Origin: Escherichia phage GADS24
Direction: 5' to 3' (one strand)
Sequence record: OQ703618.1
DNA: 64,000 bases
Shown here one piece after another: positions 2,758 to 20,336 of this stretch. The translations under genes and the position numbers were made by a program. Within the stretch, counting starts at the first letter, position 1; each line of letters begins with the position of its first letter. The notes beneath the pieces are model-generated. The model was not told the origin of the DNA, made no database searches, and saw only the letters and a program-made list of their open reading frames with translations.

Positions 2758-3573
2758 TTAACAATTTACAGACCAAGTCCATTTGGACGAATCTAAAGGA
2801 AAGTTTTGAATCGTCCACCATGGCTGCATATTGGTTGGTCCTGGGGTTCGCCAGGTATACGGATTCGACGGAGTGCCAATTTGATTAGGCCATGCACCTG
2901 GACTTGTTGCACCAGATTCTTTAAGCAAATCCGCCAATCGTTTTAAAAGGTCTTCACGATCTGAATCTGAATTACGCTCTGGTGGAACCAAACGAGATTC
3001 AATATCATCCCATGTGTGTACGCGTTGTGCAGTACGAGGAATATCATCACGTTCACCACGAGCCAACCAATAAATCGGTACATTAAGAATTTCTGCTGCA
3101 TGGTCACAGTGATGAGCTAAATCGTCAACGTAACAAATCACGTTATATTTTGTTTTAGCTAGTTCGAATAATTGTTCCTTTGAAGAATCATGTCCACACA
3201 TCATTACTTCAGAAAAGGCGCCTGGGAACAAAGCATTCAAATTAAATTGTCTATTCAATCGAGCATCAATTGAATCACCTAGCGCCGTCACGGCTACAAA
3301 ATTATAGTCTTCTTTTAGTTTATTGATAACTCGAAGAGCATCCGAATAAGGCGCTAAGTAACGAATAAAATCAGAGCGATTATATTTTTCTATTAATTGT
3401 TTACCGAGGTTATCGTCGGTATTGAATAGTTTACCAGGAGAAATAAATTTTTCGTCCTGAATCATTTTTAAAATATGTTCTAATGGAAGATTATATTTTT
3501 GGGCAAAATAAGGAAGTCCAGATTGCCAGCTTAAACATACACCATCAATATCGGTCAAAATAGTAGGCTTCAT
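2758..3573 (-). CDS. HAD-superfamily hydrolase-like protein (30.2-like)
   Basis: N-terminal LTDIDGV motif (HAD motif I, DxDG); 271 aa; Trp-rich C-terminal tail. Confidence 0.55.
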   Translation of the reverse strand: MKPTILTDIDGVCLSWQSGLPYFAQKYNLPLEHILKMIQDEKFISPGKLFNTDDNLGKQLIEKYNRSDFIRYLAPYSDALRVINKLKEDYNFVAVTALGDSIDARLNRQFNLNALFPGAFSEVMMCGHDSSKEQLFELAKTKYNVICYVDDLAHHCDHAAEILNVPIYWLARGERDDIPRTAQRVHTWDDIESRLVPPERNSDSDREDLLKRLADLLKESGATSPGAWPNQIGTPSNPYTWRTPGPTNMQPWWTIQNFPLDSSKWTWSVNC

Positions 3574-4028
3574 AGAGAGTCTCTTAATAGGTTTAACACA
3601 TCAATAAATTCAGCTTCGGTTAGTATTGTATCATCTTTTGTTAGACCACTAGCCATGCTGTGCTTCAAAATTTTTCCTTTAGAGGCTTGTAATGCATCGC
3701 GAAAGCCCTTGTTTTGGATCGCTGCTTCAAAATATGCATTTGTATACAACTCTTTCCATGCTGCAGAGTATCTTGAAAAGGGAACTCCAATCCAGAAGAG
3801 GGTCCCACGGTCCTGAGCTCTAGCATAAGCTCGCCCAGCTTGTTGGGCGGCAAGCCCGGATAACCCAAATATACGTCTTTGTTGTTCAACATTTTTCACC
3901 TTACATCCTTGGAGAAATCCTTCAAGACCTCCGAATTGAATACCATCCATAACAAAAGGCCATTGGGCGAAATTACTTAATGCGCATGACGGCCATTTGA
4001 AATTGCTTCTTATTTCTAATTCACACAT
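3570..4028 (-). CDS. hypothetical protein (30.3-like)
   Basis: First ATG at 4026-4028 (track start at 4037 is GTG); overlaps next gene start. Confidence 0.5.
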   Translation of the reverse strand: MCELEIRSNFKWPSCALSNFAQWPFVMDGIQFGGLEGFLQGCKVKNVEQQRRIFGLSGLAAQQAGRAYARAQDRGTLFWIGVPFSRYSAAWKELYTNAYFEAAIQNKGFRDALQASKGKILKHSMASGLTKDDTILTEAEFIDVLNLLRDSL

Positions 4029-4239
4029 CTTTAACACTTATAATTTCAACATCGGCCCAATGACCGTATCCAGGTATACGGTCTTCGATAGATAAATTTC
4101 CGTCATTTTTAGGCATTTTAATTGACGTAACGTATGGTTCTAAACGGTTTTCTGCATAATATGGAAAAACGTCTGTTACACGATAAGTAACTTCGATCAT
4201 TTCCGTACCAAACAATTTCTGGATTAATTTATTCAACAT
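4021..4239 (-). CDS. hypothetical protein, 72 aa
   Basis: ATG 4237-4239; compact packing. Confidence 0.45.
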   Translation of the reverse strand: MLNKLIQKLFGTEMIEVTYRVTDVFPYYAENRLEPYVTSIKMPKNDGNLSIEDRIPGYGHWADVEIISVKDV

Positions 4240-4426
4240 GTTTCAACCCTTTAATAGGAGATAACTCTTTACCCATACGTATGTCAGAAGTCCAATCAAC
4301 CCATTGAACAGCATACGCTTCATTGATAATTCCAGCGGCGGTTTTAAATTCAGGGAGAACTTTAAAAATCACCCCAGGAATTCCAACACCTTTTAATTGG
4401 ACTGTTTGTGCTATTAAAAATTTCAT
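4229..4426 (-). CDS. hypothetical protein, 65 aa
   Basis: ATG 4424-4426. Confidence 0.45.
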   Translation of the reverse strand: MKFLIAQTVQLKGVGIPGVIFKVLPEFKTAAGIINEAYAVQWVDWTSDIRMGKELSPIKGLKHVE

Positions 4427-4480
4427 ATTTTTCCACTTACTAAAGAAATCATTATACTCTAATCCATCCTTGGATGTAAA

Positions 4481-5095
4481 CTACTTAATGAAATTAATTT
4501 CTACCGGATGAACAACAGGTTGAGCAGTGATATATTGAGTAATTGCTTTCATGACTAGAGCTTCAGAACCAGGATTTTTCTCAACGAATTCACGTGCTTG
4601 GTTATGAGCTTCAAGTTCACTTAGTAAACCACTTCGTTGGCATCCACGGTCTTGAGTACCTTGTTCAGATAAAAAGACGACGATGTATTTTTCATCGTCA
4701 TACGGTTTAGACGGTTGAGCAAATGTTCCTTTACTTCCAAAAGGAGAGTTATGACGCCACATCACGCCGTGAGGAGTTTCAACCTTCGTATATTCATGCG
4801 GGCCATTTTTCTTAGTTTCTTGATGTGGAACTTCGTGGACCTTAGGGTTAGGACATTCAATAAAATGCTCATCTAAATCGGTCGAGAATATTAAAGTAAA
4901 ACAATTACTAAATTTACCAACACCTGCCTGATAAATTTTACCTTCAGAAGTTCTAATTTCACAAACTGAGCCAGCATCAGTAACTTCTAAAACTTCAAAA
5001 GGCTCGATAAGGTCATATGAGAACATGTTTTTAAGGCGTGGAGTAATATCCCCATTTTTAAAATTCATTTTATAAAAAGTATTAACTTTAAACAT
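4481..5095 (-). CDS. hypothetical protein, 204 aa
   Basis: ATG 5093-5095 with GAGGAAA RBS. Confidence 0.55.
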   Translation of the reverse strand: MFKVNTFYKMNFKNGDITPRLKNMFSYDLIEPFEVLEVTDAGSVCEIRTSEGKIYQAGVGKFSNCFTLIFSTDLDEHFIECPNPKVHEVPHQETKKNGPHEYTKVETPHGVMWRHNSPFGSKGTFAQPSKPYDDEKYIVVFLSEQGTQDRGCQRSGLLSELEAHNQAREFVEKNPGSEALVMKAITQYITAQPVVHPVEINFIK

Positions 5096-6986: not shown

Positions 6987-7319
6987 TCACTTATAAAGAC
7001 ATGGAATAGCTTTATAGTGGCATGTTACGAATTTCTGTTTAATTTCTTTAGGTTGTTTAAGTCCTAAAGCCACAAATGGATGTGGAACATTTCGAATTTG
7101 TCCAACTGGTAGTGGAGTCAAATCACCGACTTCAACAAAACCTTCAGGAACATCAGGACCTACAGAATGAACTACACATAGTTCAGGAACTTCACCTTGA
7201 ACACGTTTACCGATCACAAGTCCTGATTCTGTAACTTCTTCATCACCTGCTTGAGCGGGTTCAGAAACCAGAATGACATATTCACCAACAGCACGAATTG
7301 GGAGTTGTACTTCAGACAT
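6987..7319 (-). CDS. 31: gp31 co-chaperonin (GroES analogue)
   Basis: 110-aa translation near-identical to T4 gp31 as recalled ([29 protein letters not shown]...KAIPCLYK). Confidence 0.95.
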
Positions 7320-7376
7320 CTTATTTCCTTGTTGTTTGACGATAGATTAATAATACCATACTATTCGTAAAGCATA

Positions 7377-7673
7377 TTACATAAGAAGCAAACGTTCTAC
7401 CGGAGTACCATCAACCGAAATTACTTTATCAAGGCGGAAAGAACGCCACTGACCTAACTTGGTATCGAATGCTCGAACTGATTCACGAGGTTCATAACGA
7501 ACTTCTGTTGCCGGATTGTTATTTTCGTATTTGACTTCAAGTTCATCGCGCGAAGCAAACATAGTGCGTACCTCGCCGTTAGCTTTTTCAAATACAACAC
7601 AATGAACGCCTACAGACAGAATAGTTTTAATACGTTCACGAAGAACCATAGTTTCTTTTTCAGTTAAAATCAT
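7377..7673 (-). CDS. hypothetical protein (31.1-like), 98 aa
   Basis: ATG 7671-7673 one nt from cd stop. Confidence 0.5.
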   Translation of the reverse strand: MILTEKETMVLRERIKTILSVGVHCVVFEKANGEVRTMFASRDELEVKYENNNPATEVRYEPRESVRAFDTKLGQWRSFRLDKVISVDGTPVERLLLM

Positions 7674-7674
7674 A

Positions 7675-8256
7675 TTATTCACCACAAAAGTTTCGGATTT
7701 GTTCCCAATTCAGAGAACGAAGATTATTACGAGAGTACTGAATTACTTCAATACCGGCTTGTTTAAGAATGTCTGCCCAATTTTCAGGAGATCGGTCATA
7801 TAATTCTGCATATACAACCTTTTTAATACCTGACTGTGTAATAGCTTTAGTGCAATCAGGACATGGAGAAAGTGTCGTATACAACGTAGCACCTTCAATA
7901 GAATTACCTTTACGAGCTGCAAACAAAATTGCATTCAATTCTGCATGGATTTCGTTATTAGCAGACCATGCACTATGAGCGGCCCGATGTTCTTTAGCCA
8001 AAACAAAATTATCTACCCGTCCAAATGCTGTAGTGCCTTCTTTATGTCCAGCAACTATGACCGGGCTTGGTTTATTCTTCAACCAACCATTTTCTGATGC
8101 GTGTTCACAACAGTTAACGCCACCTGCTGGTGAGCCATTATATCCAGTAGAGATAATGCGTCCATCTTTTTCAATGACGGCACCAACTTTCCATGAACAA
8201 CATTTTGATTCTTGAGAAATCAGATATGCAATCTGAAGGTATGTGCTAGCTTTCAT
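7675..8256 (-). CDS. cd: dCMP deaminase
   Basis: 193 aa; zinc-binding deaminase motifs HAE...PCxxC (HAELNAI, PCPDCTKAI); synteny. Confidence 0.93.
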   Translation of the reverse strand: MKASTYLQIAYLISQESKCCSWKVGAVIEKDGRIISTGYNGSPAGGVNCCEHASENGWLKNKPSPVIVAGHKEGTTAFGRVDNFVLAKEHRAAHSAWSANNEIHAELNAILFAARKGNSIEGATLYTTLSPCPDCTKAITQSGIKKVVYAELYDRSPENWADILKQAGIEVIQYSRNNLRSLNWEQIRNFCGE

Positions 8257-9248
8257 TATTGAACCTTATTAATATGAGTTAACAGCTCTTTAGTTTGTTC
8301 CCAACTGATGCACGCATCGGTAACGGAAACGCCATAGGACATATTATCAGAAATTTTTTGATTTCCTTCATGTAGGAATGATTCTATCATAATTCCTTTG
8401 ACCAAATCATTAGCTGCTAAATTTTTACCAATACCAATTTGATTGCTATAATGCCCATCAGCGTTTGCATGGCTACAGTCAACCATTACATAATGATTCA
8501 GACCTACTGCCCTTGCTTTGTTAGAAGCTTCTTGAATATCAGAAGAATGATAGTTCGGGCCGTTGGTCCCGCCACGCAATACGATATGCGTATTCTGATT
8601 ACCTTCAGCTTCAACAATGCCTACAGTACCATCGACGTCCATACCCATATACCGATGAGGCCAGGCGGCACTATACATCGCGTCTGTAGCTACTTTAATA
8701 GAACCATTGGTTGCGTTCTTGAAGCCTACGCACATCGGTAGACCTGAAGCAATTTCACGATGTGTCTGACTTTCAGTCGTACGGGCGCCAATAGCAACCC
8801 ATGAGAAAATACCAGAAAGATACTTAATCGTGAATGGGTCTAATACTTCAGTTGCTAATGGAAGTCCCATACGTAGAAGTTTACGACACAATGTTCGTGC
8901 AACTATAAGACCGTGGTTCATATCAAAACTTCCGTCAAGATATGGATCATTTACAAGACCTTTCCAACCTACGGTAGTTCGAGGCTTTTCAAAATAAACG
9001 CGCATCACTAACAGAACATTAGGAAGACGAGTTTGAAGTTCAGCCAGACGTTTGCCGTATTCAACAGCAGCAATAGGGTCATGAATTGAACAAGGACCTA
9101 CAACAATAAGTTTGCGTGGGTCTTCACCGTTCATAATCGAATTAACTTGTTCGCGATGAGAAGCCACTTGTGATGCGTAAGCTTCCGACAAAGGAATAAT
9201 CTCAGCCAGTTCTTTTGGAGAAATAAGTTTTCCGACGACAGGTAACAT
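8256..9248 (-). CDS. 3-deoxy-D-arabino-heptulosonate-7-phosphate (DAHP) synthase, class I (AroG/AroF/AroH-like)
   Basis: 330 aa with hallmark motifs shared with E. coli AroG: VVGPCSIHDP, VMRVYFEKPRTTVGWKGL, GARTTESQTHRE, VGFKN.T.G.IKVA, SHAN, ESFLHEGNQ, TDACI.WE; ATG 9246-9248 with AAGGA RBS; stop overlaps cd start. Confidence 0.9.
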   Translation of the reverse strand: MLPVVGKLISPKELAEIIPLSEAYASQVASHREQVNSIMNGEDPRKLIVVGPCSIHDPIAAVEYGKRLAELQTRLPNVLLVMRVYFEKPRTTVGWKGLVNDPYLDGSFDMNHGLIVARTLCRKLLRMGLPLATEVLDPFTIKYLSGIFSWVAIGARTTESQTHREIASGLPMCVGFKNATNGSIKVATDAMYSAAWPHRYMGMDVDGTVGIVEAEGNQNTHIVLRGGTNGPNYHSSDIQEASNKARAVGLNHYVMVDCSHANADGHYSNQIGIGKNLAANDLVKGIMIESFLHEGNQKISDNMSYGVSVTDACISWEQTKELLTHINKVQ

Positions 9249-9370
9249 AACAATCCTTAGGAGATATAAACAGATTCTGATTCAACAATACCTTTAACCA
9301 GATTAGACAGGCTAAGTTGGTAGTGCCTCAAGATTTATGACCATTCTCGATAGTAATGAGATAGCTCTCA

Positions 9371-9607
9371 TTATAGTGTTCCATATACTCGAGTTGCTTC
9401 AACAAGACCATCACTGCCTAATTTAAGATTAGTAATTTGGTCACCATCTTTAGGATTAACGATTATGAGAAAAGAACGTGGAGATTCTTGAATAACTCGT
9501 AATGTTGCATCTTGGAAACGTTCAGACACTTTATTGATGAGTGCTTGAGCAAATTCTTTTACTTTAATCTGAAATTCGTGTACTGTAATTGGGTTTTCAC
9601 TTAGCAT
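9371..9607 (-). CDS. hypothetical protein, 78 aa
   Basis: ATG 9605-9607; early promoter upstream. Confidence 0.5.
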   Translation of the reverse strand: MLSENPITVHEFQIKVKEFAQALINKVSERFQDATLRVIQESPRSFLIIVNPKDGDQITNLKLGSDGLVEATRVYGTL

Positions 9608-9635
9608 TTCTATTTCCTCATTTGTTGGTAGAGTT

Positions 9636-9665
9636 ATAGTATCACAACTCCACCATGTTGTAAAC
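9636..9665 (-). promoter_or_regulatory. T4-type early promoter (GTTTAC, 18 nt, TACTAT)
   Basis: Motif match. Confidence 0.45.
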
Positions 9666-9667
9666 CA

Positions 9668-9943
9668 TTAAATTGCTTTGCATTCAATTTTTTGTGTACC
9701 AAAATTGATATCACATTGGATAACTAAATCGCCGTCAAGATCAAATACCACTATGGCGTGTGCAGACCCAGGGAGAAGAGTAATAGCAATAGAATCTACT
9801 TGGTCCGGGAGCAAAGCATTGAGTACATGAGTTAGCTGAGCATGAACTCTGAGTTCGGCTGCATTATCAAGCACTTCAAACATATTATTAGCAATAATCT
9901 GACTGAAGACTACCTTTACAATTTCAGAATAAGTTGGGAACAT
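9668..9943 (-). CDS. hypothetical protein, 91 aa
   Basis: ATG 9941-9943. Confidence 0.5.
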   Translation of the reverse strand: MFPTYSEIVKVVFSQIIANNMFEVLDNAAELRVHAQLTHVLNALLPDQVDSIAITLLPGSAHAIVVFDLDGDLVIQCDINFGTQKIECKAI

Positions 9944-9950
9944 AATTACC

Positions 9951-10175
9951 TCAGTGTACAGTATTTACTTTAACTCGAACAACAAATCGCTCGGTCGGTT
10001 CACCTACAGGAACAAACTCTACATGATATTCGCCTTTGTAACGAGTATTCAGATCATTACGAATTCCTGCGAGTTTGTTGATTAATGTAGGACTCATATT
10101 AAGTCCCACTAATTTACGAAGCATTTTGTATGCTTCATCTTCGATTTCATGATGTTTATCGTACATAGTTTTCAT
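9951..10175 (-). CDS. hypothetical protein, 74 aa
   Basis: ATG 10173-10175. Confidence 0.5.
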   Translation of the reverse strand: MKTMYDKHHEIEDEAYKMLRKLVGLNMSPTLINKLAGIRNDLNTRYKGEYHVEFVPVGEPTERFVVRVKVNTVH

Positions 10176-10346
10176 TTAACCATTCAATTGCCTGGTCGAC
10201 GTTATCAAATATACCGCCGTCCAACCATTCTTCATGTTCATAGTCCAGCACATCAATACCGAACCGTCCATTTACTAAAGGCCATACTACAAACAAATAT
10301 TCTTTATGCTGTTCGATGACCTCAATCACTTCATATAATCGTTTCA

Positions 10347-10347
<1 letters not shown>
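10156..10347 (-). CDS. hypothetical protein, 63 aa
   Basis: ATG 10345-10347 overlapping pseT stop. Confidence 0.45.
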
Positions 10348-11433
<1,086 letters not shown>

Positions 11434-11434
<1 letters not shown>

Positions 11435-11733
11435 TATTTTATTCCTAAGAAAGTTTCAAGAATACGAATGTTATGCTCGCGCCGGTCTTTATTAATTTCA
11501 GCAACGTTTTTATTAATTGACTTACTTCTAACGTTTGAAGAAATAAATTTAATCATATGACTTTTGAGTTGTTGCAAATCCAACCCTTTTTCTTTAGCAG
11601 CTTTACGAAGAGCTTTACCAGCTTCATCTAGTGCCTTTGCTGCATCTTTGTCATAATTGGCAAGTGACATTCCACGGCAGATATCAATATACTCATCAGA
11701 CCGTTTGATGTAATTCTCTAGTAATGTTTTCAT
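11434..11733 (-). CDS. hypothetical protein, 99 aa
   Basis: ATG 11731-11733; early promoter upstream. Confidence 0.5.

Positions 11734-18650: not shown

Positions 18651-20336
<1,686 letters not shown>

Follow-up and report, generated by a model that had tools for sequence, protein, structure and literature searches.

A phage-encoded DAHP synthase with a conserved catalytic core and a predicted escape from feedback inhibition in Escherichia phage GADS24

Background

Does a phage that carries its own enzyme for the entry into the shikimate pathway also keep the feedback control that the host exerts over that step? The question is raised by a stretch of 64,000 nucleotides from Escherichia phage GADS24 (OQ703618.1), here called the window, in which an open reading frame (ORF) for a DAHP synthase (3-deoxy-7-phosphoheptulonate synthase) lies next to the dCMP deaminase gene cd. 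A preliminary description regarded the ORF as an integrated auxiliary metabolic gene (AMG) and thought it possible that the product escapes feedback inhibition. The best explanation found here, with a probability of about 0.65, is that the gene encodes a catalytically competent and probably early-expressed DAHP synthase that would not be inhibited by Tyr, Phe or Trp.

The gene is already known at the annotation level as a phage AMG family, and a member at this locus is in itself no news. In Mosigvirus phiC120 an ORF with a DAHP synthetase domain is mentioned in passing (PMC8022965), and in Kanagawavirus KLB31 a DAHP synthetase is put forward as an amino-acid AMG (PMC11845039). The family phrog_5045, which PHROGs places under "moron, auxiliary metabolic gene and host takeover", matches residues 1-330 of the window protein (E 5.4e-182); family and locus are the same, with no difference of substance. 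Given these sources and about 210 annotated phage records, the novelty first ascribed to the gene was estimated too high. Searches of full-text literature for experimental work on a phage DAHP synthase, whether biochemical or genetic, returned annotation-level mentions only. What appears to be new is the combination of an intact catalytic core with an inhibitor site that seems to have been selectively rebuilt and then conserved.

Results

Identity and catalytic core

The ORF covers positions 8256-9248 on the minus strand, starts with ATG and encodes 330 amino acids; its product is a type I-alpha, AroF-like DAHP synthase. The N-terminus cannot extend further because the reading frame is closed by a TGA 11 codons upstream and neither ATG nor GTG nor TTG occurs in between, and a Shine-Dalgarno sequence, AAGGA (9254-9258, minus strand), is read 5 nt 5' of the start codon. 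The assignment rests on profile matches, on the PHROG match and on an AlphaFold2 model. A search with the Pfam profile PF00793 (DAHP_synth_1), as the preliminary description had advised, gave E 5.2e-75 (252 bits, cutoff 25.5), and the NCBIfam aroFGH equivalog TIGR00034 scored 428.7 bits with a cutoff of 173.2. The score for NF009395 was 455.9 (cutoff 343); those for the AroG equivalog NF006723 (363.9 vs 568) and the AroH equivalog NF009396 (386.5 vs 463) fell below their cutoffs. Identity to E. coli AroG, AroF and AroH is 47, 51 and 44%, respectively, and the best solved match is the Tyr-sensitive E. coli AroF (PDB 6agm, E 3e-105). Position, PF00793, TIGR00034 and the AroF match together bear out the earlier claim of a class I DAHP synthase of this length.

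All the AroG/AroF/AroH signature blocks quoted in the preliminary description were found: CSIHD (residues 53-57), KPRTT (88-92), GARTTESQTHRE (154-165), SHAN (259-262), EGNQ (294-297) and TDACISWE (310-317). It was also right about the metal ligands, which are intact, with C53, H260, E289 and D311 aligning to C61, H268, E302 and D326 of AroG. Conservation was assessed in 25 proteins of the phage clade and 98 cellular homologues. The ligand Cys53 in GPCSIHD, encoded at 9090-9092 (minus strand), is Cys in every one of them (25/25 and 98/98). [quoted passage not shown]

The AlphaFold2 model has a predicted local distance difference test (pLDDT) value of 91.5 and a predicted template modelling score (pTM) of 0.92. 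It is a (beta/alpha)8 barrel with N-terminal helices at residues 11-17 and 22-39, and it keeps the beta6a/6b hairpin as strands 198-203 and 209-214. Superposed on solved type I-alpha enzymes (4hso, 1kfl, 8e0u) it gives template modelling (TM) scores of 0.95-0.96 and a root-mean-square deviation of 1.5 Å, and NmeDAH7PS and E. coli AroG are among the structures that it resembles at this level (TM 0.95-0.96). The top 50 matches of a structural search with the model were all type I-alpha DAHP synthases. The conserved ligands and the fold suggest that the phage enzyme is catalytically competent and would form DAHP.

Inhibitor site

The canonical inhibitor site was defined from three sources (PMC9529685, PMC6520568 and PMC10349828). 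Co-crystal structures of AroG with Phe and of AroF with Tyr yielded nine inhibitor-site residues, in AroG numbering M147, Q151, D155, L179, S180, F209, S211, V212 and K214; the main chain of the inhibitor is bound by Q151/Q152 and S180/S181, and a salt bridge between D155 and K127 acts as a stabilising element (PMC9529685).

An unbiased column scan was made over the 123 alignment columns for which conservation among the cellular proteins is 90% or higher. Just six are fixed to another residue in the phage clade, AroG P150I, Q151K, D155G, S180P, F209Y and T223A, and the phage states I, K, G, P, Y and A each occur at 96-100% within the clade. Four of the six columns are inhibitor-site residues in the list of PMC9529685 and a fifth adjoins Q151. 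Since seven residues of the list fall within the 123 columns, an overlap of this kind has a hypergeometric P of 5.6e-5. The window protein does not match the canonical site, having K142, P171, G146 and Y200 in it and no N-terminal segment. Both partners of the AroG K127-D155 pair are altered, to T119 and G146.

The second difference lies at the N-terminus. By alignment the protein (MLPVV..., 9233-9248, minus strand) starts at about AroF Ile11 or AroG Ile10 and is without the AroG Asp6-Asp7-Leu8 segment. The part absent from all 25 phage-clade members comprises AroG residues 2-8, including Asp6 and Asp7, and the catalytic Cys is found at residue 49-53 in 25/25 of them, compared with residue 59 or later in 98/98 cellular proteins. 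The importance attached to this segment rests on data for AroG D6/D7 (PMC6520568) and for yeast Aro3 (PMC10349828).

Changes at these same positions have been made in the laboratory. AroG S180F and D6/D7 variants are resistant to Phe (PMC6520568), and AroFcg Q159A and S188F show no inhibition by 50 µM Tyr. The engineered feedback-resistant enzymes (AroG S180F, AroG D6G-D7A and AroFcg Q159A/S188F) and the phage clade have in common the N-terminal acidic pair, Gln151 and Ser180 as altered positions. They differ in that the engineered enzymes are point mutants made in the laboratory and frequently suffer from instability or reduced activity, whereas the phage clade has a fixed set of co-occurring changes that appears to be maintained by selection. 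Checking the allosteric-site residues, as had been proposed, thus returned Q151K, S180P, D155G, F209Y and the absent N-terminal segment, and the suggested escape from feedback inhibition gains specific support from the short N-terminus and the inhibitor-site substitutions, as a prediction from sequence.

The altered pocket lies in a strongly conserved block. Residues 131-175 (LATEVLDPFTIKYLSGIFSWVAIGARTTESQTHREIASGLPMCVG; 8724-8858, minus strand) contain the inhibitor-site residues I141, K142, G146 and P171 together with the GAR PEP-binding motif. Column entropy in this block is 0.02-0.15 in the phage clade vs 0.15-0.82 in the cellular homologues, and its sequence does not differ between genera with an overall protein identity of just 58-66%. 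This conservation could come from the adjoining GAR motif and the dimer interface, or from a new function of the site.

The wider family was sampled with 150 diverse representatives of clusters at 50% identity. Among these, a non-canonical pocket is found in 15 of 16 proteins with a short N-terminus (Cys at 45-56) and in 44 of 92 longer forms (Fisher P = 6.5e-4). The short N-terminus tracks the non-canonical pocket, which suggests that lid and pocket are gained or lost jointly. Three DAHP synthases of the representative set (P0143, P0154 and P0185) have a short N-terminus and Lys at the AroG Gln151 position, as in the phage clade. They are rich in K, N and I, which may point to an origin in AT-rich genomes or in other phages. 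Two further representatives, P0121 (799 amino acids) and P0122 (730 amino acids), consist of two tandem DAHP synthase domains each, and both domains of P0122 are without the metal-binding Cys (GPVSAHD and GPEAIHD).

Two known enzymes are useful for comparison. E. coli AroF (PDB 6AGM/6AGL) is alike over the full length (51% identity), with the same metal and PEP/E4P residues, a (beta/alpha)8 barrel that includes the beta6a/6b hairpin, Pro at 148, and Gly where AroG has Ser211. It is unlike the phage protein in that the latter starts at about AroF residue 11, has I, K, G, P and Y for AroF P151, Q152, D156, S181 and F210, and is 5 residues shorter near AroG 289-293 and 3-4 residues shorter in the loop after EGNQ. 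PhzC (type IIB, PaeDAH7PS PA1901) is likewise a natural short-form, unregulated DAHP synthase without the accessory elements of the allosteric sites. However, PhzC is a type II enzyme with less than 10% identity to type I, it has lost the alpha2a/2b helices, and it is encoded by a bacterial gene of secondary metabolism.

Distribution and evolution of the gene

The DNA of the region shares 98-99% identity with JS09-like Mosigvirus genomes (Straboviridae, Tevenvirinae), for example ST0, HX01, F2 and 308Ecol101PP, and the window itself comes from a lytic phage of this JS09-like type. A protein with exactly the same sequence (100% identity) is annotated in phage NHEP10 (PQ511148.1), and 5-6 residues set the window protein apart from those of ST0 and 308Ecol101PP; among them, N-terminal residues 5-6 vary (VG, IR or TR). 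A tblastn search of a phage collection found a DAHP synthase homologue in 212 records, 139 of them at 95% identity or more and over 130 at 98-99.7%. Where identity is 57-77%, the hosts of the phages are Enterobacter, Edwardsiella, Erwinia, Klebsiella, Serratia and Proteus.

Phylogenetic analysis of the 25 phage-clade and 98 cellular proteins, another step that had been recommended, gave one phage clade, monophyletic in 60 of 60 bootstraps of a neighbour-joining (NJ) tree and placed on a long stem. The group next to it in the tree, as sister, is gammaproteobacterial and AroF-like. Among cellular proteins identity reaches about 51-55% at best, in scattered bacterial taxa. The GC content of the gene is 41.4% (window ORFs 38.1 +/- 2.2%), and the GC content at third codon positions (GC3) is 29.6% compared with a mean of 29.0 +/- 4.5% for window ORFs, so the preliminary description was right that the composition is phage-like. 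Compared with Kanagawavirus PEi26, the ratio of nonsynonymous to synonymous substitution rates (dN/dS) is 0.15, with dS saturated. Nonsynonymous and synonymous differences number 6:1 relative to ST0 and 5:0 relative to 308Ecol101PP, counts too small to tell from neutrality.

The gene occupies the same interval between pseT and cd in T4-like enterobacterial phages of four genera: Mosigvirus, Kanagawavirus (PEi26), Marfavirus (EI) and Bragavirus (PM2). Because of the monophyly, the shared position, the scattered relatives at about 51-55% identity, the phage-like GC3 and the dN/dS of 0.15, the gene appears to be an old phage gene held by selection, with lineage-specific loss or exchange. Recent capture from a host was rejected on the low cellular identity, the monophyletic clade and the GC3. 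The view of an integrated AMG and not a recent insertion is thus supported by the clade, the common position in four genera and the dN/dS.

Within the genus Mosigvirus the gene is a presence/absence polymorphism. In RB69 (NC_004928.1, stretch 7743-8503) cd.2 abuts cd and there is no DAHP synthase gene. T4 has only the small ORFs cd.1-cd.5 between cd and pseT, as the preliminary description had said, with an unrelated cd.1 in the place of the DAHP synthase gene (T4 stretch 3119-4035). The idea that T4 Cd.1 is a degraded remnant of the synthase was rejected, as there is no similarity (BLASTP E = 12).

Some matches fall outside this lineage. Aeromonas phage HJ05 (OQ594355.1, 79 kb, not T4-like) has a distant DAHP synthase of 387 amino acids at 3899-5062, 38% identical and annotated as hypothetical, with a His-rich N-terminal extension, Pro at AroG Ser180 and His at AroG Gln151. 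In contigs labelled "Acinetobacter phage MD-2021a" (e.g. CAKLQH020000056.1), aroF stands beside cobS and alpha-ribazole phosphatase genes. These contigs look bacterial, and some "phage" DAHP synthase matches are therefore probably mislabelled. The use of independent phage acquisitions as a test of convergence was dropped, since MD-2021a looks bacterial and the faecal contigs labelled "Bacteriophage sp." lack both verification and annotation, leaving HJ05 as the sole usable case, and a single case is not enough.

Locus and neighbouring genes

The gene order in the window is pseT, ORFs similar to cd.5, cd.4 and cd.3, a promoter, a cd.2-like ORF, the DAHP synthase gene, cd, 31.1 and 31. The putative promoter (9636-9664, minus strand) is sigma-70-like, GTTTACA-17-TACTAT with an upstream TG, and aligns nearly base for base with the T4 early promoter Pe133295, which lies between cd.3 and cd.2, and with RB69. 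Downstream of it the cd.2-like ORF (9371-9607, minus strand; 78 amino acids, profile matches to DUF7320 and phrog_1504) precedes the DAHP synthase gene in what is presumed to be the same transcript. No terminator-like site was found on the minus strand in 7300-11500. Since the promoter is homologous to Pe133295 and no terminator intervenes before cd, early transcription of the DAHP synthase gene jointly with cd.2 and cd is probable, and its product would then be made along with those of the nucleotide-metabolism genes.

The downstream neighbour cd (7675-8256, minus strand) is identified as a dCMP deaminase gene by PF00383 (E 1.6e-26) and is annotated in relatives. The preliminary description had regarded the two genes as translationally coupled. 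A one-base overlap of stop and start is real: the junction TAATG (8254-8258, minus strand) contains the DAHP synthase stop TAA (8256-8258) and the cd ATG (8254-8256). As evidence of a functional link it was nevertheless rejected, because overlaps with cd are usual gene packing here, occurring also in T4 (cd.1/cd) and RB69 (cd.2/cd), and because other ORFs intervene between the DAHP synthase gene and cd in Marfavirus EI (homing-endonuclease genes) and Bragavirus PM2 (small ORFs).

No other genes for the shikimate pathway or folate synthesis were found in the window-homologous region; just td, frd, nrdAB and cd are present there, as is usual. The synthase would therefore have to supply what remains of the pathway in the host.

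Several smaller features were recorded around the locus. Directly 5' of the DAHP synthase gene, positions 9257-9382 (minus strand) correspond to a coding sequence of 41 amino acids in ST0 (FDI17_gp163), and a 2-nt indel breaks the frame in the window, so this is probably not a real conserved gene. Directly downstream of cd there is a gp31.1-like ORF (7377-7685, minus strand) with a match to the WYL_2 / Sm-like SH3 barrel PF10902 (E 2e-9), and T4 31.2, located between cd and 31.1 in T4, is absent from the window. Within 18651-20095 (minus strand), the thymidylate synthase gene td (286 amino acids) is one continuous ORF, and the start of td overlaps with the frd end. It is unannotated in OR062945.1 because the ends of that record cut through td.

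Discussion

The findings can be combined into the following explanation. Relative to its closest cellular relatives the catalytic barrel has been left untouched, while the N-terminal segment that in a partner subunit would close the pocket is missing and the two residues that would form hydrogen bonds to the inhibitor main chain are replaced, Gln by Lys and Ser by Pro. Insensitivity to Tyr, Phe and Trp would be the likeliest consequence. An active enzyme expressed early in infection could then sustain the flow of carbon to chorismate and the aromatic amino acids while the AroF, AroG and AroH of the host are feedback-inhibited and no longer resynthesised, and a downstream product might be beneficial for the phage.

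With regard to what the phage would gain, Phe makes up 4.4%, Tyr 4.2% and Trp 1.5% of the residues encoded by the large ORFs of the window. The E. coli proteome has about 3.9% Phe, 2.8% Tyr and 1.5% Trp. The Tyr demand of the phage in particular would exceed host composition, but this argument is weak because T4 has a similar composition without the gene. The gain could equally well be chorismate as a source of folate or quinones.

Several points weigh against a simple loss of feedback control. The conservation of residues 131-175 seems to fit a retained or new function of the site better than plain loss. The beta6a/6b hairpin and the Gly at the AroG Ser211 position, which is the AroF state, are retained, so residual Tyr binding is possible. 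K142 and P171 are putative pocket-lining residues. Pockets that depart from the canonical state are frequent in the family at large and not specific to phages: the canonical pair of Q151 and S180 is present in only 75 of the 150 diverse representatives. The notion that the pocket residues are invariant across all cellular DAHP synthases was rejected for this reason, as half of the representatives deviate, and the contrast between phage and cellular proteins is therefore limited to the 98 closest homologues. RB69 and T4 are without the gene, which means that it is dispensable under laboratory conditions and that any benefit is conditional. In the literature searched, no enzyme assay, transcript data or phage knockout was found for any member.

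Some of these points lead to the main rival explanation, possible but doubtful, in which the phage proteins form a distinct natural type I-alpha subclass whose inhibitor site has been converted rather than lost. A new effector, or else a protein of the phage or of the host, would then be bound at the site, and the enzyme would be re-regulated. The ligand may be anionic and not an amino acid, given the gained Lys and the lost acidic N-terminal residues, and entry into the shikimate pathway may thereby be tied to a physiological signal of the phage itself and not to the aromatic amino acids of the host. The stronger constraint on residues 131-175 in the phage clade (entropy 0.02-0.15 vs 0.15-0.82) and the identity of this block across genera with 58-66% overall identity are consistent with such a conversion, as are the joint change of the AroG K127-D155 salt-bridge partners to T119 and G146 and the six substitutions, which are fixed states (96-100%) and not drift. 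However, nothing in the locus points to a ligand or a partner, and the adjoining GAR PEP-binding motif and the dimer interface could equally explain the conservation. The retained features could also belong to an ordinary extra AroF-like isozyme, still inhibited by Tyr and merely adding enzyme copies during infection. The Tyr-sensitive AroF is the best solved match, the hairpin is kept in the model, and both the Gly at the AroG Ser211 position and the Pro at the AroF Pro148 position are AroF-like. Such an isozyme is nevertheless unlikely, since the segment equivalent to AroG Asp6/Asp7 is absent in 25/25 members, the inhibitor-contacting Gln151 and Ser180 have become Lys and Pro, and single substitutions at either of these two positions relieve inhibition in homologues.

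The two remaining alternatives concern the value and the chemistry of the enzyme. Absence of the gene from RB69 and T4 and the almost exclusively nonsynonymous differences (6:1 vs ST0, 5:0 vs 308Ecol101PP) would be expected of a passenger gene in a hyperplastic region, of no benefit to the phage and drifting to loss. This is very unlikely in view of an ORF that is intact in about 210 records from several genera, catalytic residues that are all invariant and a long-range dN/dS of 0.15, and the short-range counts are too small to set apart from neutrality. A different PF00793 reaction, for example that of a KDO8P synthase or one acting on another sugar phosphate, could be suspected because KDO8P synthases also belong to PF00793 and because lipopolysaccharide has been loosely linked to the DAHP synthetase domain (PMC8022965). 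Such a reaction is extremely improbable given an aroFGH equivalog score 2.5 times the cutoff, KPRTT and all E4P/PEP ligands identical to AroG, and exclusively type I-alpha DAHP synthases among the top 50 structural matches. A DAHP synthase freed from inhibition by the aromatic amino acids therefore remains the favoured explanation.

Conclusions

The presence of the gene has been catalogued before, and it is the prediction of a whole lineage of naturally deregulated phage DAHP synthases that could matter. That the enzyme is naturally feedback-insensitive, or re-regulated, is a sharp hypothesis that can be tested cheaply. Instability is frequent among variants engineered at these positions (PMC9529685), and the phage enzyme, if the prediction is true, would offer a stable feedback-resistant DAHP synthase, tested by evolution, for the production of aromatic compounds. 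The JS09-like phages with the gene and RB69 without it form a natural pair for asking when the gene pays. If feedback insensitivity is real, the phage clade would be a clear case of a virus that keeps the chemistry of an enzyme while dropping the control that the host has over entry to the pathway, and it would mean that T4-like phages manipulate aromatic or chorismate metabolism in addition to nucleotide pools.

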